Source of the DNA: an uncultured Anaerolineales bacterium
Lineage (GTDB): Bacteria > Chloroflexota > Anaerolineae > CG2-30-64-16
Assembly (NCBI GenBank): GCA_964474695.1
Contig: CAYYTK010000006.1
Span: forward strand, 95,526-159,525
Direction of reading: 5' to 3'
Length of the DNA stretch: 64,000 nucleotides
Of the stretch, positions 6,949 through 57,353 are shown one piece after another. The translations under genes were made by a program, and so were the position numbers. Within the stretch, counting starts at the first letter, position 1; the number at the start of each line of letters is the position of its first letter. Under the pieces are notes generated by a model, which was not told where the DNA came from, did not search any database, and was given only the letters and a program-made list of their open reading frames with translations.

Positions 6949-7824
6949 ATGACTTCCTCTTCAACACAAACGCCTGCTGTTCGGCCTTCGGCGGTCGCAG
7001 GCACGTGGTATCCCGGCAGCGCGTCCGCGCTGCGGCGCACCGTCGAGGGGTACCTCGATCAAGTCCGCCCGCAGCAGTTGCCCGGACCGGTTGTTGCGCT
7101 GATCTCCCCGCATGCCGGCTACGCCTACTCCGGCGCCACGGCCGCACACGCCTATGCCCAGGTAGCCGGCGCTGATTTTTCGCGGGTCCTCCTGTTCGGC
7201 CCCCTGCACCGGCCCATTTGGGGCAGTCAGCTTGGCCCGTTCATGGTGCCCGCGGAAGCCTCCTATCGCACGCCCCTGGGTGACGTGCCGCTCGACCGGG
7301 AGTTCATCCTGGCGCTAGGGGAGAAGGTGGCTCTGACCGCAGTGCGGCGGGACGAGGAGCATTCACTGGAAATCGAGCTGCCCTTCCTGCAAGTTGTCTT
7401 GGGATCCTTCCAGCTCGTGCCGATCATGTTCGGTGAGCATGTCGGTGCGTCGGGCGCCTTGTCCAGGATCGAGCAGCTCGCGTCCGCTTTGGCAGCGCTG
7501 TGGGATGAGCGCACCTTGCTGGTGGCCAGCACTGACCTGACCCATCTGGATGATTACGGGACTGTCGTGCGGATCGACAAAAAACTGGTCGACCGGGTGG
7601 CGGCGTTTGATGTAGATGGCCTGACCGCAGCTTTGGCCGCCGAGGAGGTGCAGGCGTGTGGGGCAGCCGGCCTTGTGACGGCCCTGCGCATTGCTCGGCA
7701 GGTGGGGGCCAAGGGGGCTCAGGTGCTCGCCTATGCGGCATCAGGCGATGTCACCGGCGACAAGCGTCCAGGCACCTACACCGTCGGGTACCTGGCTGCT
7801 GCGATCTACAGGGGCGAGCACTAG
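6949..7824 (+). CDS. MEMO1-family protein (AmmeMemoRadiSam system protein B)
   Basis: AGTWYPGS...ISPHAGYAYSG is the Memo-type N-terminus. GGAGG is upstream of ATG 6949. Confidence 0.8.
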   Translation: MTSSSTQTPAVRPSAVAGTWYPGSASALRRTVEGYLDQVRPQQLPGPVVALISPHAGYAYSGATAAHAYAQVAGADFSRVLLFGPLHRPIWGSQLGPFMVPAEASYRTPLGDVPLDREFILALGEKVALTAVRRDEEHSLEIELPFLQVVLGSFQLVPIMFGEHVGASGALSRIEQLASALAALWDERTLLVASTDLTHLDDYGTVVRIDKKLVDRVAAFDVDGLTAALAAEEVQACGAAGLVTALRIARQVGAKGAQVLAYAASGDVTGDKRPGTYTVGYLAAAIYRGEH

Positions 7825-15028: not shown

Positions 15029-16741
15029 CTACAACCCCATCGCGCACCCGTCCGCCCGCATATCACTCCCGCCGCACAGCACACCCGTCTCCGGGTCTCG
15101 TAGGATGATCTGTCCGCGGCCGAAAAGTGCGCGCTCGTGGCCGGCCACGACATCGACAGGATGTCCCATCTCGGCCAGGGCCGTCACCGTCGCGGCCGGG
15201 ATGCCCTCTTCCAGGCTCACGCGGCCCGCGGCTGTGCCGCTGTTGATACAAAAGCGCGGTCGGTCAAGCGCTGCCTGTGGATCAAGCCGGTCGTCAGCCA
15301 GCGCCAGCACCACCTGCGCGTGGCCCTGGGGCTGCATAAAGCCGCCCATGACACCGAAGGAGGCGATAAGTAGATTGGTAGATTGGGAATTGATGGAACC
15401 GTCCACCAATCTACCATCTACCACTCCACCGTCCCGGGTGATCATCGCTGGGATGATCGTGTGGTAGGGCCGCTTGCCGGGCGCGAGCGCGTTCGGGTGC
15501 CCCGGTTCCAGGCTGAAATTGTGACCGCGGTTCTGCAGGCTGAAGCCCCAGCCGGACGGCACGATGCCGGTGCCGAATCCCATATAGTTGCTGTTGATGA
15601 AGGAGCAGGCATTGCCTTGTTCGTCCACGACGCTGAAGTAGACCGTATCGGAGCCGGCGACCGGGGCGCCGCGACGTTGGTCGAGGGTGGTGTGTGCCGG
15701 ATCGATCAGCCCTCGACGTTCGGCGGCATACTCCTTCGAGAGTAACTGGTCGATTGGTATGTCGGCAAACTGGGGATCGGCGACATACCAGCGCGTATCG
15801 GCGAAGGCCAGGCGCATCGCCTCGATCTCAAGGTGTAGTCGTTCGGGTGCCAGGGGTTCGCGGCCGGCGAGGTCGAAGCCCTCCAGGATGTTCAGCGCCA
15901 ACAGCGCGGCCAACCCCTGGCCGTTCGGCGGGCATTCCCAGATGCGCAAGCCGCGGTAGGTTGTGCTGATCGGCTCGTCCCAGGTGCTGGTGTGCGCCGC
16001 CAGATCCTCGACCGTCAGGCAGCCGCCCGCGGCCTGTACGGCGGCTGCGATCGCTTCGGCGATGCGCCCCTGGTAATAGGCGGCCTTGCCGCCCTCGGCC
16101 ACGGCGCGCAGGGTGCGGGCCAGGCCGGGATTCCGAAACACCTCGCCGGGCTTGGGCGCGCGGCCATCGATCGTCAGTTCCCGGCCGCCGGCTGCCTGGC
16201 GCAACTGCCGTTCGGCCCCGCGCGCCCAGAAGTAAGCGGTGATGGGTGCGACCGGGAAGCCCTCCTCTGCCAGGCGAATGGCCGGCGCGAGGACGCGGCT
16301 CAGCGGCAGGCGGCCGTGGCGCTCGACCAGGTCGCACCAGCCCGCGCACGCACCGGGCACGGTGATCGTGTAAGGATGGTAGGGGGGCAGTTCCACGCCG
16401 CACCCGGCGGCGCCGAATCCCTCGCGTTGCAGCCGTTCCAATGTCAGCGCGGCCGGCGCGCGGCCCGATCCGTTCAGCGCGGTGATCTTCCCGTTGGCGG
16501 CCTCCGGCGTTACCGGCGGAGCAGCCTCGTAGAACAGCGCAAAGCAGTCGCCGCCGATGCCGGTGGAGGTGGGCTCGGTCACGTTCAGGGCCGCGGCGGT
16601 CGCGACCGCGGCATCGGCCGCGTTGCCGCCTGCGGCCAGGATCTCCAGCCCGGCAGCCGCAGCTAACGGCTGCGATGCCGCCACCATGCCGCGGCGGCCG
16701 TAGACGGGCGAGCGGCGGGACGCGAAAATCAGCTCAGACAT
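15029..16741 (-). CDS. ggt: gamma-glutamyltransferase
   Basis: Typical GGT large- and small-subunit motifs. Carries an extra ~20-codon in-frame segment (VVDGRLVDGSINSQSTNL) made of family-B octamers. Confidence 0.85.
   Translation of the reverse strand: MSELIFASRRSPVYGRRGMVAASQPLAAAAGLEILAAGGNAADAAVATAAALNVTEPTSTGIGGDCFALFYEAAPPVTPEAANGKITALNGSGRAPAALTLERLQREGFGAAGCGVELPPYHPYTITVPGACAGWCDLVERHGRLPLSRVLAPAIRLAEEGFPVAPITAYFWARGAERQLRQAAGGRELTIDGRAPKPGEVFRNPGLARTLRAVAEGGKAAYYQGRIAEAIAAAVQAAGGCLTVEDLAAHTSTWDEPISTTYRGLRIWECPPNGQGLAALLALNILEGFDLAGREPLAPERLHLEIEAMRLAFADTRWYVADPQFADIPIDQLLSKEYAAERRGLIDPAHTTLDQRRGAPVAGSDTVYFSVVDEQGNACSFINSNYMGFGTGIVPSGWGFSLQNRGHNFSLEPGHPNALAPGKRPYHTIIPAMITRDGGVVDGRLVDGSINSQSTNLLIASFGVMGGFMQPQGHAQVVLALADDRLDPQAALDRPRFCINSGTAAGRVSLEEGIPAATVTALAEMGHPVDVVAGHERALFGRGQIILRDPETGVLCGGSDMRADGCAMGL
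15371..15430. repeat. family-B (TAGATTGG / CCAATCTA) composite inverted repeat lying in frame inside ggt
   Basis: TAGATTGGTAGATTGG ... CCACCAATCTACCATCTACCA. The two halves are reverse complements of each other. Confidence 0.85.
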
Positions 16742-19803: not shown

Positions 19804-22161
19804 TCAGGGTGCTTGTTTACCCTGCAGCCCGCGCCACACCCGCTCGGGCGTCAGCGGGAACTCGTCGAAGCGCACCCCGGTCGCGTCATAGACCGCGGCG
19901 CAGACGGCGGCTGCCGCGGGTAGGTAGGGCATCTCCCCCATGCCGCGCGCGCCGAACGGGCCGTTGGGATCGGGCACCTCGACGATCAGTGCATCCATCT
20001 GATCCGGCACATCCAGCACGGTCGGGATCAGGTAGGTGCTGAGTTTGTCGGTGAGCACCCGTCCCTCCCGCGTCTTCCACTCCTCCTGGATCGCGTACCC
20101 CAATGCCTGCACTGCCGCGCCCTCGATCTGGCCCGTCACCTGCTGTGGATTGATGGCCTGGCCCACGTCATCGGCGCTGATGAAGCGCTCCACCTTGACT
20201 TGCCCGGTTTCGGTGTCGACGGCCACGAACGCCACCTGGGCTACGTAGCCGTACGCGAAATTGGGCTTCCCCTGGCCGGTATCGTGATCCAGCGGCGTAG
20301 TCTTGGGGGCCAGGTAGACGTATTCACCGATGGCCGGCCGCTCTTCGTTCCGCCAGGCTGCCAGCGCCTTCTCGGCGGCCCCGCGCACCGCGTTGCCGCT
20401 CATGTAGGTGAGTCGCGAAGCGGATGCACTGCCTGAGCTGCCCATCTGCGCCGTGTCGGATGCGATCACCTTCACCCGCCCAAACGGCACCTCCAGCACC
20501 TCGGCAGCCACCTGCGCGATGATGGTATGATTGCCCTGGCCGCAGTCCGCCCCGGCAAAGTAAACCACCGCCTCTGCGATCTCGCTCCCGCCGCGCGCCT
20601 CCACGCGGGCGTAACTGTTCTCCTGGTAGCCGAACGAGAAGCCGACGTTCTTGAAGCCCGCCGCAAAGCCGATGCCGCGGGCGATCTGCGGATCGCTTGC
20701 GTGTTGCGCATTGCGTGTTGCGTGATTCGCTGATTCGCTGATTCGCTGATTCGTTGATTCGCCGTTTCGCTGATTCGCAGGCCTGTGCCAATGCCGCGGC
20801 ATGCATGCCGCTTCATCCTGTGTCCATCCGGCAGCTTTCGCGGCCGTGATGATGGTCTTGGTCAAGCCAACGCCGCCGGGGATAGGTGTGCCAACAATGA
20901 GCAGGCTCTCATCGGTCAGGATGTTCCGCAGCCGGATCTCAACCGGGTCGAGGCCTAAGGCTTCGGCCAGTTTATCCATCTGGCTTTCGGCCGCGAAGTG
21001 GCCCTGGGGTCCGCCGAAGCCGCGGAACGCCGCGCCTGGCACGTGGTTGGTGTAGACGGCGTAGGTGTCCACCGCAGCATTCGGGATGTCATACGGCCCC
21101 GTGCAGGTCAGGGTGGTGTTGCCCAACACCTTGTTGCTGGTGTACATGTAGGCCCCGCCATCGGCGATGACCTTGACCTCGACGGCGGTCAGCCTGCCAT
21201 CACGCTTCGCGCCCCAGCGGGTGTAGATCTTCATGGCGTGGCGTTTGCCGTGGCCGATGATCGATTCTTCGCGGCTCCAGATCGTCTTGATCGGTCGCCT
21301 GATGCCGCGCTGCGCCAGCCGCCAGACTGCCAGCGCCAGGGTGATCTGAACCGACATGTCCTCGCGGCCGCCGAACGCACCGCCGATGGCCGGATAGATC
21401 ACGCGCACCTGTTCCTTGGGGATGCCCAGCGCGTGCGCGATCTGTCCTTGATCCTCGTGGGTCCATTGGCCCGCAACCTCGACCGTGATGCGTCCTGCGT
21501 CATCCAGATAGGCCACACCGGCCTCGGGCTGGAGGTAAGCGTGTTCTTGCACCGGGGTCTGATAGACCCCCTCGATGATGACGCCGCCTTCGTCGGCAGC
21601 CTCCCGGAAGCCCGCCTCGACATCGCCCTTGCGGATGCGATACGCATAGCACACGTTATTCGCGCTGTGCGGATGGAGTTGATAGGGCACTGGCCGCGCA
21701 GGATCGGCCGCGCTTAATCCGCCGGCCAACGACGGCGCAGCTTCCTCGGGGTCGAGCACGACCGGCAGATCCTCCCACTCGATCCGGATCAGCTTGCAGG
21801 CCGCGCGTGCCTGTGTTTCGGTCTCTGCCACCACCAGCGCCACCTGGTCCCCCACAAAGCGGGCCACGTCGGCGCCAGGCTTGTCCGAGCCGGGGCCGCA
21901 GAGCACCGGCTGGTCCTTGATCTGCAGGCCATATTCGTTCACCGGCACATCTTTGGATGTGAACACCGCCACGACGCCAGGGGCGGTTTCGGCCGCAGCC
22001 GTCTCGATGCTGAGGACGCGCGCATGCGGCCGTCCGGCGAACAGCGTCGCCATATGCAACATGTCCGGGTAGACGATATCCCCGGGGTAAAGCGTCTTCC
22101 CGGTCACCTTGCCGGGCGCATCGATGCGGACAGCATTCTTGCCTACCATGTGGTAACTCAT
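19804..22161 (-). CDS. xanthine dehydrogenase family molybdopterin-binding large subunit
   Basis: MSYHMVGKNAVRIDAPGKVTGKTLY... N-terminus with Mo-binding domains (GGAFGG, GGGFGG-like motifs). Start ATG 22161 has a GGAGG RBS and an ATGA overlap with the upstream gene. The 114-codon N-terminal extension in the ORF track is rejected. Contains a ~33-codon low-complexity in-frame insert. Confidence 0.85.
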   Translation of the reverse strand: MSYHMVGKNAVRIDAPGKVTGKTLYPGDIVYPDMLHMATLFAGRPHARVLSIETAAAETAPGVVAVFTSKDVPVNEYGLQIKDQPVLCGPGSDKPGADVARFVGDQVALVVAETETQARAACKLIRIEWEDLPVVLDPEEAAPSLAGGLSAADPARPVPYQLHPHSANNVCYAYRIRKGDVEAGFREAADEGGVIIEGVYQTPVQEHAYLQPEAGVAYLDDAGRITVEVAGQWTHEDQGQIAHALGIPKEQVRVIYPAIGGAFGGREDMSVQITLALAVWRLAQRGIRRPIKTIWSREESIIGHGKRHAMKIYTRWGAKRDGRLTAVEVKVIADGGAYMYTSNKVLGNTTLTCTGPYDIPNAAVDTYAVYTNHVPGAAFRGFGGPQGHFAAESQMDKLAEALGLDPVEIRLRNILTDESLLIVGTPIPGGVGLTKTIITAAKAAGWTQDEAACMPRHWHRPANQRNGESTNQRISESANHATRNAQHASDPQIARGIGFAAGFKNVGFSFGYQENSYARVEARGGSEIAEAVVYFAGADCGQGNHTIIAQVAAEVLEVPFGRVKVIASDTAQMGSSGSASASRLTYMSGNAVRGAAEKALAAWRNEERPAIGEYVYLAPKTTPLDHDTGQGKPNFAYGYVAQVAFVAVDTETGQVKVERFISADDVGQAINPQQVTGQIEGAAVQALGYAIQEEWKTREGRVLTDKLSTYLIPTVLDVPDQMDALIVEVPDPNGPFGARGMGEMPYLPAAAAVCAAVYDATGVRFDEFPLTPERVWRGLQGKQAP
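20680..20778. repeat. family-A repeat cassette (GGCGATCTGCGGATCG + TTGCGTGTTGCG x2 + CTGATTCG x6) in frame inside the XDH Mo-subunit gene
   Basis: Tandem octamers read directly. Encodes ...ANQRNGESTNQRISESANHATRNAQHASDPQIA... Confidence 0.9.
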
Positions 22162-23615
22162 TGGTGTGCCTCCCTTCCCACTGTCGCGCGCTCGATCGCC
22201 TCCAGGATCTTGTAGTACCCCGTGCAGCGGCACAGGTTGCCGGTGAGCGCCTGTTTGATCTGGTCGGCGGTAGGCTGCGGGTATTCTTCGAGCAGATTTG
22301 CAGCCGACATCAGGATGCCGGGGGTGCAGTAGCCGCACTGGACGGCCGCAGCGTCGATGAAAGCCTGTTGAATCGGATGGAGTTGGCCTGCTGTCGCCGC
22401 CAATCCTTCCACCGTGACAACCTCGCAACCTTCGGCCCGCTCTGCCGGCACCAGGCAGCTCATCACCGCCACGCCATCCAGCCAGACCGTGCACGCGCCG
22501 CATTCGCCCTCGGCGCAGCCTTCTTTCGTCCCAGTCAGCCCGGCATCCTCCCGCAAGGCACGTAGCAGCGTCTTCCCGTGGGTGTTGGGTAGGCTGGTAG
22601 GCTTGCCGTTCAGGATCAGAGAGATCGGCGATTGGGGGTTGGAAACTGGTAGAGCTGCATTCGCTGATTCGTTGATTCGCTGATTCGCTTTCCCCTGCAA
22701 CAACACCGGCTGCTCCGGCCAGCCCTCCCGTTCCGTGCCGTCGCGCAGTTGGCGCAAGGCACGGGCCGTGAGCACCCGCACCATGTCGCGGCGATAGTCG
22801 GCGCTGCCTCGGATGTCGGAAATGGGGCGGGCTGCGGCTGCGGTCAATTCCGCCGCGCGGTCGATGACCTCATCGGTAAGCCCCTTGTCGGCCAGGAAGG
22901 CTTCTGCCTCCCCCGCGCGTACGATGGTCGGTGCGACGGAGCCGAGAGCGATGCGGGCGCGTGATATATGGTCTTCAGCAAAGTCTACGATCACCGCGAC
23001 ATTCACGACGCTGATCGCCTGCGCCTGTCGCAGGCCGAGCTTCAGGAACGTGCCGCGCTCGGTCGGCTTGAGGGCCGGGACATTGATGCGAACGAGCATC
23101 TCGTCGGCCTGGAGCGCGGTCTTTCGGACGCCGCGGAAGAACTCGGCGCAGCTCAGGGTGCGCTCTCCCCGCGCGCTGCTGGCCAGGGTAAAGGTGGCGT
23201 CCATGGCCCACAGCGGCGCGATGGTGTCGTTGGCCGGGCTGGCGGTGATGCAGTTGCCGGCCACGGTGCCGCGGTTGCGGATTTGCGGCGCACCTACCAG
23301 CCAGCAGGCCCGTGCCAGCGGAAATGCATCGGCCACCGCATCGGGCATGCCTACCACCTGATTGTGGGTGACATTCGCGCCCAGGTGGAAGGCGCCGTTA
23401 TTGCGTTCAATGGCGTCTAGCCCGGGGATGCGTGAGACATCGATAATCGTCTCCGGTGTCCGCACCCCGCGCTCGATCTCCAGGATCAGATCGGTGCCGC
23501 CCGCAATGAGACGGGCGGTCTGCGGATCGTTTGCGTGTTGCGGGCGATCTGCGGATCGCTTAAGCAGGTCCAACGCTTCAGCGATGCTGCCCGGCGCGTA
23601 ATAGGTATGCCACAT
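22158..23615 (-). CDS. fused FAD-binding (CoxM/XdhB-like) + [2Fe-2S] (CoxS/XdhC-like) subunit of the molybdenum hydroxylase
   Basis: N-terminal FAD-binding domain (AGGTDL...). C-terminal two [2Fe-2S] cysteine clusters (CAEGECGACTV; CGYCTPG...CRCTGY). The linker and N-terminus each carry family-A repeat-encoded segments. Confidence 0.8.
   Translation of the reverse strand: MWHTYYAPGSIAEALDLLKRSADRPQHANDPQTARLIAGGTDLILEIERGVRTPETIIDVSRIPGLDAIERNNGAFHLGANVTHNQVVGMPDAVADAFPLARACWLVGAPQIRNRGTVAGNCITASPANDTIAPLWAMDATFTLASSARGERTLSCAEFFRGVRKTALQADEMLVRINVPALKPTERGTFLKLGLRQAQAISVVNVAVIVDFAEDHISRARIALGSVAPTIVRAGEAEAFLADKGLTDEVIDRAAELTAAAARPISDIRGSADYRRDMVRVLTARALRQLRDGTEREGWPEQPVLLQGKANQRINESANAALPVSNPQSPISLILNGKPTSLPNTHGKTLLRALREDAGLTGTKEGCAEGECGACTVWLDGVAVMSCLVPAERAEGCEVVTVEGLAATAGQLHPIQQAFIDAAAVQCGYCTPGILMSAANLLEEYPQPTADQIKQALTGNLCRCTGYYKILEAIERATVGREAHQ
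22656..22695. repeat. family-A octamer run (CATTCGCTGATTCGTTGATTCGCTGATTCGC) inside the FAD-[Fe-S] linker
   Basis: Encodes KANQRINESANAA in frame. Confidence 0.85.
23514..23562. repeat. family-A module (GGCGGTCTGCGGATCGTTTGCGTGTTGCG + GGCGATCTGCGGATCGCT) inside the 5' end of the FAD-[Fe-S] gene
   Basis: Near-identical to 20681-20710. Encodes SADRPQHANDPQTA in frame. Confidence 0.85.
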
Positions 23616-29243: not shown

Positions 29244-29386
29244 TGGTAGACTGGTAACTTGGTACGTTGGTAGATTGGTGCTTGGTAGATTGGTAGGTGG
29301 TGTATTAGTTGCAGGTTCTCCGAGGCCCAGTTTCCCAACCTACCAATCTACCAATTTGCCAGTTCACCAGGTTACCAATCTACCAG
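29244..29386. repeat. family-B array: GGTAGATTGG-type units (left) facing CTACCAATC-type units (right) in a composite inverted repeat
   Basis: Read directly. Intergenic between the PLP-enzyme stop and the hydrolase start. The ORF-track entry 29153..29338 merely translates it. Confidence 0.85.
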
Positions 29387-32278: not shown

Positions 32279-32950
32279 CTACCTGTCTCCCTCCTCCTTT
32301 CGATATCGTTCCGCGATCTCCCGGATTTGCACCAGGTGCTCGCGCTCGTGCTCCAGCGCGCGTCGGGCAACCTTGCGAGGGGTCCACTCCTCGCCAGAGT
32401 GCACCGTCACCCGGCCCCGAGTGTCGTCGCTCAGGGCGCGCAAGCTGTCGGTGAGCAGGCTGCGTGTGGCGGTCAGGCGTTCAAAGAGGTCACCGGGCCA
32501 CTGCTTCAGGCGCTGGACGTACCACCAGTCTGCGTTGCCGATATGGCTCAGGATCTCGCGGATCGAATAAATATTCGGGTTGGGTTTCCAATCCAGCGCG
32601 GCCGGCGGCAGCTTCGAGACAGCCTCCAGCAGCTCATCCCGGCTGATCTCGAGCCACTGCGCCAACTGCTCAGCTTCGTTGGGCATCAGGGGATTGGTGT
32701 CGGATGGGAAGATCGAGCCGGCGCATTCTCGGACATCCAACTCGATCTTATCAGTCTCGCGCGGCACGCCGCTCACGCCTGCGTGGATCAGGAGCGCAAG
32801 GTAGGCCCTCAACGTCTCCTGACAGCGCGCGACTGCCTCTTTCTTGGTGATCCCTCTGCCGACGCACCCCGGAATGGCCGGGATGTGCGCCAGATAACCG
32901 CCCTCTTGGAGGGTCTCGGCGTCGCATTCCAGGTAGACGACATATTTCAT
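32279..32950 (-). CDS. HicB-like (UPF0150) N-terminal domain fused to a DinB/YfiT-like C-terminal domain
   Basis: MKYVVYLECDAETLQEGGYLAHIPAIPGCVGRGITKKEA is the HicB antitoxin fold. C-terminal W/H-rich DinB_2-like segment (HIGNADWWY...HEREH). GGAGGTG RBS. Confidence 0.5.
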   Translation of the reverse strand: MKYVVYLECDAETLQEGGYLAHIPAIPGCVGRGITKKEAVARCQETLRAYLALLIHAGVSGVPRETDKIELDVRECAGSIFPSDTNPLMPNEAEQLAQWLEISRDELLEAVSKLPPAALDWKPNPNIYSIREILSHIGNADWWYVQRLKQWPGDLFERLTATRSLLTDSLRALSDDTRGRVTVHSGEEWTPRKVARRALEHEREHLVQIREIAERYRKEEGDR

Positions 32951-32987: not shown

Positions 32988-33014
32988 GCCGGCCGCTAGA
33001 ACCTAGCGGCCGGC
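32988..33014 (-). terminator. 12-bp perfect stem (GCCGGCCGCTAG-AAC-CTAGCGGCCGGC) downstream of the carbamate kinase gene
   Basis: On the minus strand it is followed by AGCTCCGCTTTTG. Possible attenuating terminator between arcC and the next gene. Confidence 0.35.
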
Positions 33015-33029
33015 CTGCCATTTCTAACT

Positions 33030-33998
33030 TCAATCGGGCACGATGTGCGTGCCGGTCTCCCCGCGCAGCGCGCGGCCGATGTTCTCCGGGTTGGTGATGA
33101 TCGCGTGTTTGCCGCCGTTCTCCAGATACCAGATGATCGCCTGGATCTTCGGCGCCATTGAGCCTTTAGCGAAGTGCTTGCCCTCGGCCAGATATTGCTT
33201 CGCCTCGGCGAGGGTCAGGCGATCCAGCCATTGCTGATCCGGCTTGCCGAAATTGATCGCGACCTTCTCGACGGCGGTGGAGATCAGGAACAAGTCGGCA
33301 TTGACGCTCTGCGCCAGCAGGCTGGACGCGTAGTCCTTGTCGATCACCGCGGCCGTGCCCTGGTAGTTGCCGGTGCCGGGATCGATGACCGGGATGCCGC
33401 CGCCGCCGACCGTAATGACCACGACGCCCGCCTTCAGCAGCGCCTTCACGGTGTCTAGCTCAACCACCTCTTTCGGCAGCGGGGATGCCACCACGCGGCG
33501 CCAACCGCGGCCTGCATCCTCGACCACCGACCAGTTCATCTCTGCCTCGCGGCGTTTGGCTTCCGCTTCGCCCATGAAGCCGCCAATCGGTTTCGTGGGA
33601 TTCTTGAACGCCGGATCGTTGCGATCCACCAATACCTGGGTGATGACCGTCGCGACGTTCTTGTTGATCTTGCGCTCGAACAGCCAGTTCTGCAGGGTCT
33701 GTTGGAGCGCATAACCGATGGCGCCCTGGCTGTCCGCACCGCAGACGTCCAGCGGCACCTCGTGCATTCCTTCAACCTTGGCCGCGATCTCGGAGCGGCG
33801 CAGGATGAAGCCGACCTGCGGCCCATTGCCGTGGCCGATGGCGACATCCCACCCCGCTTCGATCATGTCGGCGATGTGGAATGTGGTCTCCTTTGAGGCA
33901 TTATACTGGTCTTCGACCGATTGATGCTTGGCGTCCGAAATCAGTGAATTGCCGCCGATAGCGACGACTGCGACTTTACGGGAAGTGGTTTGGGTCAT
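33030..33998 (-). CDS. arcC: carbamate kinase
   Basis: VVAIGGNSL...HGNGPQVG carbamate-kinase N-terminal signature. ATG 33998 has an AAGGAG RBS. The ORF-track N-terminal extension is translated family-B repeat. Confidence 0.85.
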   Translation of the reverse strand: MTQTTSRKVAVVAIGGNSLISDAKHQSVEDQYNASKETTFHIADMIEAGWDVAIGHGNGPQVGFILRRSEIAAKVEGMHEVPLDVCGADSQGAIGYALQQTLQNWLFERKINKNVATVITQVLVDRNDPAFKNPTKPIGGFMGEAEAKRREAEMNWSVVEDAGRGWRRVVASPLPKEVVELDTVKALLKAGVVVITVGGGGIPVIDPGTGNYQGTAAVIDKDYASSLLAQSVNADLFLISTAVEKVAINFGKPDQQWLDRLTLAEAKQYLAEGKHFAKGSMAPKIQAIIWYLENGGKHAIITNPENIGRALRGETGTHIVPD

Positions 33999-34017
33999 AT
34001 ATGTGCTCCTTCGGAAG

Positions 34018-34052
34018 GGTAGATTGGTAGATTGGTAAGTTGGCAAATTGGG
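34018..34052. repeat. family-B units (GGTAGATTGGTAGATTGGTAAGTTGG)
   Basis: Lies between the arcC start and the four-helix-bundle gene stop. Confidence 0.85.
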
Positions 34053-34059
34053 ATATGGG

Positions 34060-34524
34060 TCATGTCTCATCAGCGCCGATTGGGAAAGGCGTGATTTCGT
34101 AGAGTGGCCCTTCTTCATGCACGGCGACACGGTCACCATATTCCTGGCGGCCCTGTTGCTGGCCGCGCACATAGCGAATGTAGCCATTCAGTGACCGCAA
34201 GGCGCTATGGCAGAGCTGGCGTTGGGCAGGCAGCTCGCCCTTGGTGTAACCGAGAACATCACAAGCGATGAACTGGCTCAGCGTTTCCTCGAGCGATCCG
34301 CGGGCGATATAAAAGAAACGGAGGCAGTCGAGGTAGTGATAACGTCCGTAACCTTCAGCGATGTTGAATCCTACGCTGGTGGATGCCTTCCGCATCTGCA
34401 GCCCCAGGTTGTACTTCTCCTCAGGCGGCAACGTCTGTATCACCCGATAGGCCGCGCGCATCACCTGGAGCGCCAACTGATAGCACTCCAGATCCTCGAA
34501 CCCCCGCTGCTCCTTTTGTTCCAT
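34060..34524 (-). CDS. four-helix-bundle protein of the '23S rRNA intervening-sequence protein' family
   Basis: ECYQLALQV...FNIAEGYGR...ARGSL.E motif pattern typical of that family; about 150 aa. Confidence 0.65.
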   Translation of the reverse strand: MEQKEQRGFEDLECYQLALQVMRAAYRVIQTLPPEEKYNLGLQMRKASTSVGFNIAEGYGRYHYLDCLRFFYIARGSLEETLSQFIACDVLGYTKGELPAQRQLCHSALRSLNGYIRYVRGQQQGRQEYGDRVAVHEEGPLYEITPFPIGADET

Positions 34525-34546
34525 TGACGCCCCAATCCACCACTCG

Positions 34547-34735
34547 GGATTTGGTAGAATGATGACGAGGTAAATTGGTAACTTGGGAGCTGATACTGGC
34601 CCCCCAATTCACCAGGCCACCAATCTACCAATTACCAATCTACCAATCTACCAATCTACCAATTACCAATCTACCAATCTACCAATTACCAATCTACCAA
34701 TTTACCAATTACCAATCTACCAATTACCAATCTAC
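34547..34735. repeat. largest family-B array: about 15 tandem CCAATCTA / CCAATTA units preceded by inverted GGTA-ATTGG units
   Basis: Read directly. Sits between the carbamoyltransferase stop (34732) and the four-helix-bundle gene start. The ORF-track entry 34583..34792 merely translates it. Confidence 0.9.
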
Positions 34736-35718
34736 ATCGTGAGTGCCATCACGGCCTTCTGCGCGTGCAGTCGGTTCTCTGCTTCGTCGTAGACCACTGA
34801 GTTCGGCCCATCGATGACGCCATCGGTGACTTCGATGTTGCGGTCGGCGGGCAGCGGGTGCATGTAGATGGCATCGGGCTGCGCCAGCGCCATCTTGCGC
34901 TCGTCGGTGATCCAGTTCTTGTAGGTGTCCTGGAGCTTCTTGCCCTCGACCTTGTCGGCGGTGGTGAGCAGCGGGCCCCACGACTTGGCATAAATGACGT
35001 CCGCGTCCTTGAACGCGATGTCCATGCCGTTTACGTCTTCGACGATTTCGAAGCTGGTCTTGTACTTGCGCGCCTGTTCCTCGGCCATTCCCACGATCTC
35101 AGGCATCAGTTGGAAGCCGGGCGGATAGGCGAGGGTCACGTCCATGCCGAAGCGCGGCATCTGCACGATCAGCGACTGCGGCACCGAGATCGGCTTGAGA
35201 TACGACGCCGCGTACGCCCATGAGACGACGATCTTCTTCTTGCGCAGATCGCGGCCCTTCTTCTCCATGATGGTCATCAGGTCGGCCAGGCACTGGAAGG
35301 GGTGGTAGATGTCGCACTGCATGTTGAGCACGGGCACGCGCGACGCCTTGGCAACTGCGTTGATGTACTTGTTGCCGTCCAGCCAGTCGCAGTGGCGGAT
35401 GGCGATCCCGTCGAAGTAGCGGCCGAAAATCTCGCCGATCTCTTTCGGCGTGTCGCCGTGTGAGATCTGGGTGGTGTTGGAGTCAATGAATGCGCCGTGC
35501 CCGCCGAGCTGCGCCATGCCTGCTTCGAACGAGCCGCGGGTGCGGGTGCTGCTGAAGAAAAACAGCATCGCCAACACCTTGTCGCGCAGATACGCATGGG
35601 GTTCGTTCAGCGCGCGCTTGCGCTTCAGATCGAACGCCACGTCCAGTACAGTCTCGACCTCCTCCTTCGAGAAGTCAAGATCACCGATAAGGTCACGACC
35701 GTGAAGATAGGTTTGCAT
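34732..35718 (-). CDS. aspartate/ornithine carbamoyltransferase family protein (specificity unassigned)
   Basis: SSTRTR carbamoyl-phosphate motif, HPFQCLAD and MHPLPA motifs. 328 aa. Confidence 0.75.
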   Translation of the reverse strand: MQTYLHGRDLIGDLDFSKEEVETVLDVAFDLKRKRALNEPHAYLRDKVLAMLFFFSSTRTRGSFEAGMAQLGGHGAFIDSNTTQISHGDTPKEIGEIFGRYFDGIAIRHCDWLDGNKYINAVAKASRVPVLNMQCDIYHPFQCLADLMTIMEKKGRDLRKKKIVVSWAYAASYLKPISVPQSLIVQMPRFGMDVTLAYPPGFQLMPEIVGMAEEQARKYKTSFEIVEDVNGMDIAFKDADVIYAKSWGPLLTTADKVEGKKLQDTYKNWITDERKMALAQPDAIYMHPLPADRNIEVTDGVIDGPNSVVYDEAENRLHAQKAVMALTM

Positions 35719-35730
35719 AGGATTCTCCTT

Positions 35731-36759
35731 TCATCGATTTGCGATTTCGTCCGTGCGACCCAAGACAAGCGCCAGCAGCGCCATACGCATCACGACGCCG
35801 TGGTACGCCTCCTGCCAGTAGCGGGACCATTTCGTGATATCCACGTCAAGGGGGATTTCATCCATGCGCGGCAGCGAGTGCAGCAGGATGGCATCCGACT
35901 TGGCCTTGTTCGCCAGCAGATCGCGTGTGATCTTATAGGCGGCCGGGGTCAGGCTGTGGTCCTTGCTGGCTTCCTGGCGCGCCTGGGTGTAGTCAGGCTG
36001 GATCACCGGCTCGACCAGGATCACATCCGCGTCCGCAATGACCTGCTCGACGTGTTCGGCCTCTTTGAAGTCCAGCGAATAGCGCTGGAAGTCGGCCTTG
36101 TACTCTTCCGGCATGCGCATATCCGGCGAGCCGGGGAACAGCGCGTCCGGCGTCGGACCGACAAACGTGATGGGGCAGTCGAACTGGGTGAGCGCATACC
36201 CCAGCGAGTGCATGGTGCGCATACGCATGTCGCCGACGGCCACCCACTTGAGACCGTCAATGCGGCCCCTGGTGCGCAAAACGGTGTAGAGATCGGTCAG
36301 GATTTGGGTTGGATGCTCGCCCCAGCCGTCACCGCCGTTGATGATCGGCACCGACGACCAATATGCCGCCTCCTGCGGCGCGCCCTTTTGATAGTGGCGC
36401 ATCACGATCACGTCCCCGTAAAACTCCAGCATCTTGACGGTGTCTTTGATCGATTCTTGATACCAATCGCCCGCACGGGTCATCTTGGCATCGGAGAAGC
36501 CGGTGACATGCCCGCCCAGGCGGTGCATCGCGGCCTCGTGCGCCAGGCGCGTGCGGGTGGACGGCTGATAGAATGCCGTCACCAGCGTCTTGTCTTTCAG
36601 CAGATCTCCGTTGTGCCGGTTGCGCGCAAACGGTTCCATTTGTTCCGCGACATCGAAGACGCGGAAGAACTCTTGACGTTCGAAATCTTTGAGCGAGAGG
36701 ATGTCACGACCTTCAAAGCTACGCATAGGAGTTTCCTTTCCAGGTTGATTTACCACCAA
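35731..36759 (-). CDS. second, divergent aspartate/ornithine carbamoyltransferase family protein
   Basis: PSTRTR, EHPTQILTD and LHSLP motifs. 342 aa. Confidence 0.7.
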   Translation of the reverse strand: MVVNQPGKETPMRSFEGRDILSLKDFERQEFFRVFDVAEQMEPFARNRHNGDLLKDKTLVTAFYQPSTRTRLAHEAAMHRLGGHVTGFSDAKMTRAGDWYQESIKDTVKMLEFYGDVIVMRHYQKGAPQEAAYWSSVPIINGGDGWGEHPTQILTDLYTVLRTRGRIDGLKWVAVGDMRMRTMHSLGYALTQFDCPITFVGPTPDALFPGSPDMRMPEEYKADFQRYSLDFKEAEHVEQVIADADVILVEPVIQPDYTQARQEASKDHSLTPAAYKITRDLLANKAKSDAILLHSLPRMDEIPLDVDITKWSRYWQEAYHGVVMRMALLALVLGRTDEIANR

Positions 36760-36790: not shown

Positions 36791-36882
36791 AGGTCTTGCA
36801 CCTGCCCCCACAGATGCGGCATGTATGTCGGCGGCATACGCGCCATTGGGCCTTTGTGTCTTTGTGTCTCTGTGTTTTTGTG
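36791..36882. repeat. 9-bp-stem hairpin (GGGGCAGGT-CTTGC-ACCTGCCCC) followed by CTTTGTGT tandem octamers (x4, imperfect)
   Basis: Read directly. Intergenic between the ygeY stop and the carbamoyltransferase start. Confidence 0.8.
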
Positions 36883-49729: not shown

Positions 49730-49875
49730 GTGACAAATCGGCAGATTGGTGAACCAATGCATCAATCCATCGGCGTCCTGCTATTAGAAACTGGTGGATC
49801 GGCAACTTGCCATCAAGAATGCCGGATCCACCAGTTCACGCATCTACCAGTTTACCACTCTACCGGTCTACCAGT
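49730..49875. repeat. diverged family-B-like region: 14-bp-arm hairpin (CTGGTGGATCGGCA...TGCCGGATCCACCAG, 49791-49834) plus CTACCAGT-type units
   Basis: Read directly. Intergenic between the PFOR stop and the DHOD-like start. Confidence 0.75.
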
Positions 49876-57239: not shown

Positions 57240-57260
57240 GGGGTACCTCACGGGGAGTCG

Positions 57261-57353
57261 GTGAATTGGTAAATTGGTAGATGGTAAATTGGTAGATTGG
57301 TGCCCCATGAGCCAGATTGAATGGCCCGGCCTACCAATCTACCAATCTACCAG
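57261..57353. repeat. family-B composite inverted repeat (GTGAATTGGTAAATTGGTAGATGGTAAATTGGTAGATTGG ... CTACCAATCTACCAATCTACC)
   Basis: Read directly. Lies between the SBP stop and the ATPase start. Confidence 0.85.

Follow-up and report, generated by a model that had tools for sequence, protein, structure and literature searches.

A four-helix-bundle gene enclosed by inverted tandem repeat arrays in an operon of an Anaerolineales bacterium resembles an rRNA intervening sequence

What is the gene of a small four-helix-bundle (4HB) protein, of the family carried by the intervening sequences (IVSs) of 23S rRNA, doing between two enzyme genes of a bacterial operon, and how is it related to the short tandem repeats on both of its sides? 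This question is raised by a stretch of 64,000 nucleotides, here called the window, from an uncultured Anaerolineales bacterium of the phylum Chloroflexota (assembly GCA_964474695.1, contig CAYYTK010000006.1, positions 95,526 to 159,525 of the forward strand). The original prediction for this locus was that repeats had mediated the insertion of a small selfish or accessory gene between a carbamoyltransferase gene and a carbamate kinase gene. We have compared the window locus (WIN) with a set of loci numbered L001-L187, and the reading that we favor, with a probability of roughly 0.6, is that the array, the 4HB gene with its own Shine-Dalgarno (SD) sequence and the inverse array form an IVS-type cassette residing in an mRNA operon, for which steps of movement, processing and binding are proposed below.

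The 4HB gene (34060-34524, minus strand; PF05635/TIGR02436, S23p/Avd fold) encodes 154 amino acids. When read in its orientation, it is preceded on the minus strand by about 15 tandem 7/8-nt units, (GGTAGATT / GGTAATT)n, at 34619-34735 and followed, on the same strand, by about four inverse units, CCCAATTTGCCAACTTACCAATCTACCAATCTACC, at 34018-34052. The Tandem Repeats Finder program (TRF) detected the upstream array with a period of 8, 15.2 copies, 90% matches and a score of 192, and the downstream array (34018-34051) with a period of 8 and 4.2 copies, and TACCAATC occurs 18 times in the window versus 0.68 expected, a number reached by none of 100 shuffles. These results support the predicted presence of repeat arrays on both sides of the gene, and the Pfam and NCBIfam matches support its predicted position between a carbamoyltransferase and a carbamate kinase. 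The key feature missed by the prediction is that the flanking arrays are mutually inverted, (GGTAGATT)n upstream and (AATCTACC)n downstream in the gene orientation, so that they can enclose the open reading frame (ORF) in a stem, as in rRNA IVSs.

The upstream tract (34547-34735) is composite, being composed of 15 units, a short loop and about three inverse units. Its inner end forms a local hairpin (34547-34618, minus strand), visible in the sequence and in both the minimum free energy (MFE) and centroid folds, in which the last forward units are separated from about three inverse units, CCCAAGTTACCAATTTACC ... TCTACCAAATCCC (34548-34588), by a loop of about 12 nt (34589-34599); this hairpin is kept in L004. 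The 5' leader of the gene (34525-34546, minus strand) has a G-rich SD-like sequence, GATTGGGG, which derives from the last repeat unit, and at other loci of the same subfamily (subfamily A, see below) an equivalent GATTGGGAGG or GATTGGGGGG is located 6-10 nt ahead of the start codon. The arrays reach into the signals of both neighbors or up to them: the TAG stop codon (34732-34734) of the upstream carbamoyltransferase gene, OTC2, falls within the first unit of the 5' array, and the 3' array, which is complementary to the 5' array and pairs with it in the MFE fold, stops just short of the SD sequence (AAGGAG) of the carbamate kinase gene.

When the window element of 741 nt is folded, its MFE structure closes the entire ORF between the paired 5' and 3' arrays (z = -8.9), and at L006 a stem of about 60 bp is present in both the MFE and centroid folds (z = -9.6). 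A scan of 33900-34850 for sigma-70 promoters and intrinsic terminators found none, and the 4HB genes are co-oriented with their host operons, which together fits dependence on host transcription. No rRNA or other family of Rfam was detected in 33000-36000, and at a permissive threshold only sub-threshold chance matches of miRNA precursors to the local hairpin were obtained. In the mechanism that we propose, the cassette would be co-transcribed with the presumed anaerobic purine-degradation operon, between the carbamoyltransferase and carbamate kinase genes, and base pairing between the arrays of the transcript would close a long stem over the ORF, a likely substrate of RNase III by analogy with rRNA IVSs. 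Cleavage would part the cistrons on either side and set free a 4HB message that is monocistronic. Lacking a promoter of its own, the gene would have to keep the orientation of the host operon.

Is the gene a regular member of this operon? An OTC2 alignment was scanned against 185,579 species genomes, and the best 80 loci were kept, all of which belong to Anaerolineae-type metagenome-assembled genomes (MAGs) with OTC2 amino acid identities of 81-99%. Among 63 loci of GTDB Anaerolineae species showing both OTC2 and the kinase, the junction of the two genes is shorter than 40 nt in 33 and 40-140 nt without the gene in 23; a 4HB gene, every one of another subfamily, is present in 5, and other long inserts are found in 2. 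Since the two enzyme genes are mostly adjacent among relatives, the 4HB gene is an optional insert. Of the clade to which the window belongs, WIN, L004 and L005 have the gene and L011-L015 do not, and the empty junctions are 9-84 nt in length and have no TACCAATC arrays. The gene is therefore optional and has been gained or lost repeatedly. Universal synteny with arcC was suggested by the first six orthologue contexts and was overturned by the genome scan and further contexts.

An orthologue occupies the same junction in seven more lineages (L004-L007, L009, L010 and L187), and the flanks were inspected for all of these except L187. Forward arrays upstream and inverse arrays downstream are present in L004-L007, an upstream array only in L009, and a variant unit on both sides in L010 (TTAGTAAA upstream, TACTAATC downstream). 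The ORF called in L007 and L009 extends into the place where the downstream array would be and overlaps the start of the kinase gene. Homologues are numerous at 66-92% identity, those with names being from Anaerolineae or Anaerolineales, and an identical protein was found on short metagenome contigs only. The repeat differs in copy number among strains whose protein is identical, from about 5 units in L003 and about 12 in L002 to 15 in the window. Synonymous divergence (dS) between orthologues is from 0.7 to >3, and the ratio of nonsynonymous to synonymous divergence (dN/dS) is 0.03-0.17; judging from these values, the gene is old and under strong purifying selection, neither recent nor decaying. 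About 10 other species have a 4HB gene in the adjoining junction between OTC2 and OTC1, the next carbamoyltransferase gene upstream, and three 4HB genes exist in L010. Decayed 4HB remnants still bracketed by arrays are found in L045, L052 and L071, and solo hairpins occur in the OTC2-kinase junction of at least 10 species.

Persistence at one junction could mean that the protein is a subunit, chaperone or regulator of the carbamoyltransferase or carbamate kinase step, with the repeats irrelevant. Eight independent lineages keep the exact junction, two of them with a stop codon overlapping the kinase start, and the protein has strong purifying selection and invariant C14, C88, C105 and His63. 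However, most species with the same operon do not have the gene, the same subfamily (69-75% identical) is found in beta-oxidation and sulfotransferase operons, and other subfamilies fill the same and adjoining junctions, and we regard a role in the pathway as highly improbable.

With these data, the original prediction can be judged in its other parts. An insertion at the junction is well supported, 56 of the 63 junctions being at most 140 nt in length and without the gene, and in the empty junctions of close relatives the gene and the arrays are both absent. We found neither syntenic orthologues free of repeats nor universal synteny with arcC. The idea of a small selfish or accessory insertion holds as far as an optional insert is meant, and a recent or decaying selfish insert is contradicted by dS and dN/dS. 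That the insertion was mediated by repeats, through recombination between arrays and solo hairpins of one family, is plausible, although no such event has been caught.

The enclosure by complementary arrays can be compared with that of ordinary genes of the operon. By local alignment of the 200 nt upstream with the reverse complement of the 200 nt downstream, the median complementarity score is 18 for 25 4HB genes, whereas 258 control genes (OTC1, OTC2, kinase and YgeY) and cross-locus pairs both have a median of 8. Duplex energies of the flanks also differ (Mann-Whitney p = 2e-6 and 2e-9), with a difference that is significant but modest; spurious pairing of GC-rich coding flanks adds noise to the values obtained by RNA duplexfold with 120-nt flanks. 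No enclosing complementary arrays are found around other accessory genes inserted in this operon. A metagenome scan with a typical 4HB alignment provided 80 more loci from other contexts (the OTC1-OTC2 junction, ahead of an SbcD-like gene, ahead of a GcvP-like gene, and others), where the design is (nTAGTTnn)n upstream and (nnAACTAn)n downstream, and in the variants TCGTT/AACGA, TAGTG/CACTA and TAGTC/GACTA the two sides always match. In 64.5% of 93 loci, the 5-mer that is commonest upstream is found again downstream as its reverse complement, versus 30% after permutation (p<0.001), and nearly all of about 105 4HB genes are enclosed by complementary arrays.

The pairing of protein subfamilies with repeats was assessed over these approximately 105 Anaerolineae loci. 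Subfamily A is accompanied by TTGGTA in 9 of 12 cases, subfamily B by GTAGAC in 6 of 8 and subfamily C by TAGTY in 83 of 85, with no cross-assignments, and on the contigs with two subfamilies (L010, L101, L133 and L147) each gene-repeat pair stays separate. The window repeat family is not unique to the 4HB gene, because it also forms gene-less hairpins: those at 29244-29385 and 57260-57352 consist of a forward array, a loop of 30-40 nt and an inverse array, and partial ones are located at 49740-49875 and 15370-15423. Genomes with the cassette have gene-less hairpins of its repeat dispersed over their intergenic regions. A tblastn search for 4HB paralogues within the window found none, and the 4HB gene is single there. 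Solo TTGGTA arrays away from the gene are present at 5 of 7 loci with subfamily A and at 2 of 80 without it; a strict dependence of these arrays on a local subfamily-A gene was considered and is broken by L011 and L058.

The same subfamily, with 69-75% identity to the window protein, has been found in three other operon junctions: between genes for 3-hydroxyacyl-CoA dehydrogenase and enoyl-CoA hydratase (L181 and L185), for a thiolase and a dehydrogenase (L184), and for a sulfotransferase and a GFO-type oxidoreductase (L183). The flanks, which were read at all of these except L185, are of the TTGGTAGA type upstream (a single unit in L184) and of the TACCAA type downstream, and the last repeat unit merges into the SD sequence as GATTGGGAGG. 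The gene subfamily and the repeat family travel together through at least four operon junctions. We propose that array, gene and inverse array would form the mobile unit together and that it probably moves without a transposase, using solo hairpins of its own repeat family as partners in homologous recombination or gene conversion; these hairpins probably serve as landing pads when empty and represent scars after loss in other cases. Movement of this kind would account for three observations, namely that subfamilies and repeats are paired, that solo hairpins stand in the junction and that remnants exist.

The same design was looked for outside Chloroflexota by a tblastn search of PLSDB, from which ten plasmid loci (2.7-3.4 kb in the case of cyanobacterial loci) were examined, with genes annotated as 'four helix bundle' or 'S23 ribosomal' in Nostoc, Calothrix, Anabaena, Pseudanabaena, Picosynechococcus, Geminocystis and Riemerella. 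In all ten copies the gene stands between tandem arrays built from one and the same 7-8-nt unit, examples of the units on the two sides being GGGAAAA/CCCTTTT, GGGAACA/TGTTCCC, AGGGTGT/ACACCCT, ACAGGTG/CACCTGT, GGAGATAA/TTATCTCC and AAGGTTCA/TGAACCTT. Nine of the ten are simply inverted, and the Pseudanabaena copy is a composite of array, loop, inverse array, gene and inverse array, like the window. The design of a gene in inverted arrays thus recurs in Cyanobacteria and Bacteroidota, which makes three phyla with Chloroflexota. Most arrays in these loci of about 3 kb adjoin the 4HB gene, and most of the plasmid 4HB genes are co-oriented within operons, lying between cas10 and cmr3, between cas6 and cas4 (twice) and between a parA-like gene and parB. 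In the searchable literature, with subscription journals outside its coverage, no link of 4HB/S23p proteins to STRR (short tandemly repeated repetitive) elements or octamer repeats was found, and a prior description is possible.

The cases in CRISPR-Cas operons are L173, L175 and L178 (Pseudanabaena, Picosynechococcus and Anabaena sp. 90 plasmids), and the start annotated for cas4 in Anabaena sp. 90 seems to include the inverse array. A '23S rRNA IVP' is listed among CRISPR-associated families in association screens (PMC10910872), and STRR-flanked 4HB genes inside cas operons may be the explanation for this.

Could the octamer arrays be a generic, slippage-prone filler of intergenic regions, so that any operon gene falls between two of them? 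Arrays with a period of 7-8 are found in many intergenic regions, including 42 of 64 loci without a 4HB gene, and at five other places in the window, even in frame within coding genes, and their copy number is hypervariable. Coincidence, however, does not account for control genes and other accessory inserts having no enclosing complementary arrays when nearly all of the 4HB genes have them, for the absence of cross-assignments between subfamily and repeat, or for the cyanobacterial loci of 2.7-3.4 kb, where most arrays adjoin the 4HB gene. This explanation is already disfavoured, and we consider it improbable.

What kind of protein does the cassette encode? The 154-aa product matches PF05635 (E 4.7e-24, 85.1 bits, cutoff 33.8) and TIGR02436 (87.6 bits, cutoff 24). 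The AlphaFold2 (AF2) monomer model (pLDDT 81) has helices at residues 13-31, 34-58, 64-90 and 98-123, followed by a C-terminal tail of about 30 residues, conserved and predicted to be disordered, with the motif GRQEYGDR..HE..P.Y. A Foldseek search with this model gave Xanthomonas S23p (2GSC) as the best match (template modeling (TM) score 0.91-0.94, root-mean-square deviation 1.1-1.5 A), 2RLD as the next (TM about 0.8), and then the Avd chains of 8UB7, a ribonucleoprotein of a diversity-generating retroelement (DGR; TM 0.75-0.81); a sequence-profile search of the PDB also matched 2GSC (E 3e-18, 32% identity). The bundle is common to the window protein and the S23p structures 2GSC (Xanthomonas XCC0516) and 2RLD (Bacteroides BT_0352), whereas the window protein has in addition the conserved tail of about 30 residues and invariant Cys/His residues. 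Alignment A1 (29 sequences) has 57 invariant columns, and C14, C88, C105 and H63 are invariant in the subfamily; the Cys/His residues and the tail may represent a metal site or a partner-binding peptide. A related tail, [RK]x[IV]xE[ED]..Y, occurs in longer members of the other subfamilies (B and C). PADLOC and PHROGs, searched with the three 4HB subfamilies, gave no match. The 2GSC structure has 5 chains and is a homopentameric toroid (PMC4990558), and the window protein would, as we propose, be a ring-shaped pentamer like S23p and Avd that binds nucleic acid, possibly its own repeats.

The window protein shares its four-helix-bundle fold by homology with Avd, which is pentameric and works on structured RNA, and the gene might accordingly be taken for an orphan Avd, the remnant of a DGR, as would suit its similarity to the Avd of 8UB7 (TM 0.75-0.81) and the fact that PF05635 is the commonest family beside DGR reverse transcriptases (PMC10053308). 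No reverse transcriptase, however, is found in syntenic loci or among the annotated neighbors at 19.8-45 kb of the window (xanthine dehydrogenase, GntR, YgeY, two ornithine carbamoyltransferase (OTCase)-type enzymes, carbamate kinase, DinB, pyridoxal phosphate (PLP) enzymes, a hydrolase and YgfK). There is also no template repeat or variable repeat near the gene, and the nearest structure is S23p 2GSC, not Avd. An origin of this kind is scarcely credible.

A further possibility is that the 4HB ring oligomer is the trans-acting partner of its own repeat family, binding the periodic core (e.g., UAG-containing 8-mers) as RNA or DNA in its own flanks and in solo hairpins genome-wide; by this binding it would regulate the repeats in their processing, stability, translation or spread, like TRAP on (G/U)AG repeats or RAYT on REPINs. 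The strict subfamily-repeat pairing, kept even within one contig and across four genomic contexts, the enrichment of solo arrays where the gene is present (5/7 vs 2/80), the bracketing of the gene by its own repeats, as in RAYT genes, and the strong selection on the protein all suit such a partnership. So do the pentameric relatives 2GSC and Avd, the latter being part of an RNA-protein complex, and the conserved core with variable spacer positions, which is more like a binding motif than a helix. On the other hand, co-inheritance of the gene with its flanks also explains the pairing, arrays without a local gene are present in L011 and L058, and the cyanobacterial position between cas6 and cas4 has different repeats in different hosts, which suggests that the host repeat repertoire sets the arrays. 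We consider such a partnership rather doubtful. A wider form of it is that PF05635 proteins and short tandem intergenic repeats (STRR sequences of cyanobacteria, octamers of Anaerolineae) would be cognate systems in at least three phyla: an Avd/S23p-like ring of each subfamily, encoded between inverted arrays of its 7-8-nt motif, would recognize this motif and influence how the repeat is processed or spreads at solo hairpins genome-wide, and the rRNA IVS would be the special case of a cassette that had landed in an rRNA helix. Taken as a whole, this can be put forward tentatively, as a rather unlikely idea.

Several results weigh against the IVS-type cassette and its proposed steps. No transposition or conversion was directly observed, and protein clades largely track context, which means that moves are rare. 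TTGGTA arrays exist in L011 and L058 though their junction is empty. The long-range stem of the window is present in the MFE fold and absent from the centroid, because the 5' array also forms the local hairpin. Selection on a sense RNA gave no signal in a count of arm mismatches (G-U 158 vs A-C 168), and within one repeat family the variable positions showed no locus-specific covariation, matched arms having a median complementarity of 20 and cross-locus arms of 21; only the core motif covaries between arms. Since the complementarity comes from the shared core without covariation of sites, DNA homology or a protein-binding motif fits equally well. The pentamer and its binding to nucleic acid are extrapolated from 2GSC and Avd.

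How does the element compare with known systems? The closest likeness is to the 23S rRNA IVSs of Leptospira, Coxiella, Brucella and Haemophilus, which have the same protein family in the loop and terminal inverted repeats capable of forming a stem, strain-variable short tandem repeats upstream of the ORF, and a patchy, insertion-like distribution. The Coxiella IVS has a terminal inverted-repeat stem of 28 bp that is cut by RNase III, and its loop contains an S23p ORF, which is decaying and apparently untranslated and is preceded by tandem heptamers (GACAGAT) whose number varies between strains (PMC4990558). By contrast, the window element resides in a junction of a protein-coding operon and not in helix 25 or 45 of 23S rRNA, tandem copies of an 8-nt repeat that occurs genome-wide make up its stem arms, where those of IVSs are unique sequence, and its ORF, differing from that of Coxiella, has an SD sequence and strong purifying selection.

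Cyanobacterial STRR heptamers form hairpins in operon spacers, e.g., between hupS and hupL, and have no assigned function (PMC2670836). Heptamers of this type flank the cyanobacterial 4HB genes that were examined. The solo hairpins of the window (29244-29385 and 57260-57352) are likewise tandem, intergenic and hairpin-forming, but the window unit is mostly 8 nt (7/8 mixed) instead of 7 and the host belongs to Chloroflexota, and therefore the window repeats are analogous to STRR sequences and not demonstrably the same family. In the REPIN-RAYT design, a gene is flanked by inverted hairpin repeats that are also dispersed in the intergenic regions of the genome. The window element is similar in having a single gene between inverted, dispersed, hairpin-forming repeats and in the co-occurrence of gene and repeat family; it differs in that the protein is a small helical bundle for which only PF05635 was detected, not an HUH/Y1 transposase, and in that the repeats are tandem 7-8-nt arrays, those of REPINs being palindromes of 20-40 nt. 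An integron gene cassette was also considered and rejected, because repeats are present on both sides as against a single 3' attC and no integrase is found among the neighbors.

The minus-strand gene order around the cassette is OTC1, OTC2, the 154-aa ORF, carbamate kinase, a DinB-fold gene and two PLP enzymes, with YgeY, GntR and xanthine dehydrogenase genes further upstream and YgfK further downstream. OTC1 (35731-36759, minus strand) is a carbamoyltransferase gene. OTC2, the upstream boundary gene (34732-35718, minus strand; 328 aa), encodes an OTCase-fold carbamoyltransferase (PF02729 and PF00185), for which none of the NCBIfam equivalogs searched reached its cutoff. The downstream boundary gene encodes carbamate kinase (33030-33998, minus strand; 322 aa; TIGR00746 378 bits, NF009007 417 bits), and gene calls on identical contigs place its true start at 33998, which makes it shorter than the listed ORF. 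The NCBIfam cutoffs were passed by YgeY, YgfK and carbamate kinase, and we take this gene set to be the selenium-linked anaerobic purine-degradation cluster (ygeW-ygeY-yqeA-ygfK group). The DinB_2 gene (32279-32950, minus strand) in the spacer between the kinase and the PLP enzyme is optional: the window, L001 and L006 have it, and L004, L005, L007 and L009 do not. The spacer between YgeY and OTC1 has a third repeat family, CTTTGTGT x3.9, at 36852-36882.

The two junctions of the operon have further peculiarities. The OTC1-OTC2 junction (L016-L090) is a hotspot for small accessory genes, among them a His-phosphatase-like gene (MKTIEIRRHS...), a conserved helical protein of 95-115 aa (MTTIFDELR...), a DUF2204 nucleotidyltransferase pair, an IS630-type transposase and large membrane proteins, and these genes have no complementary arrays around them. 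At the OTC2-kinase junction, a different REP-like perfect palindrome, ATGTCATTGCGAG ... CTCGCAATGACAT, is found in L022, L023, L026 and L034, and it also breaks up the 4HB remnant in L052. There are two deeply divergent types of carbamate kinase, with about 60% versus 80-94% amino acid identity to that of the window beside OTC2 of 82-99%; in L011, for example, where the junction (6985-7000) corresponds to 33998-34735 of the window, OTC2 is 99% and the kinase 58% identical to those of the window. Since divergent kinases stand beside similar OTC2, this junction looks like a recombination breakpoint.

Among the gene-less hairpins of the window, the one at 29244-29385 is located in the spacer between a hydrolase and a PLP enzyme, that at 57260-57352 between an ABC ATPase and a BMP-family binding protein, and that at 49740-49875 between a dihydroorotate (DHO)-dehydrogenase-like protein and pyruvate:ferredoxin oxidoreductase (PFOR). 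In these three the G/T-rich, TAG-containing arm comes first on either strand, so that stop codons stand in all three frames ahead of the loop. The mini-hairpin at 15370-15423 (GTAGATTGGTAGATTGGG ... CCACCAATCTACCATCTACC) lies in frame inside the ORF 15029-16741 (minus strand) of a gamma-glutamyltransferase / cephalosporin-acylase-like protein, where it accounts for 18 residues (GVVDGRLVDGSINSQSTNLL region) that 2NLZ, otherwise aligned end to end (E 3e-149), does not have; it resembles the Rickettsia palindromic elements in ORFs. Another repeat family, TTGCGTG x4 and TGATTCGC x7, is located at 20697-20778 inside the ORF 19804-22503 (minus strand) and is read in frame as ...ANQRNGESTNQRISESANHATRNAQHA... 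within the xanthine dehydrogenase Mo-binding subunit. The MoCoBD_2 match of this ORF is broken into two stretches, and an array of the same TTGCGTG/TGATTCGC family in the same orientation exists 1.9 kb off at 22654-22689.

To our knowledge, the function of S23p/4HB proteins has been unexplained since the 1990s, apart from Avd in DGRs. Three puzzles would merge into one that can be tested, namely the role of S23p/4HB proteins, the role of STRR sequences in operon spacers and the origin of rRNA IVSs. The cassette would explain why small 4HB genes are found within unrelated operons, including those of CRISPR-Cas, where guilt-by-association screens can mistake them for components, and in-frame insertions of such repeats can inflate or fuse gene calls in Anaerolineae MAGs. 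Candidate cognate pairs for binding and RNase III assays are subfamily A with GGUAGAUU, B with GUAGACAA and C with UAGUU. The link between PF05635 and STRR sequences across phyla would make the function of both directly testable.

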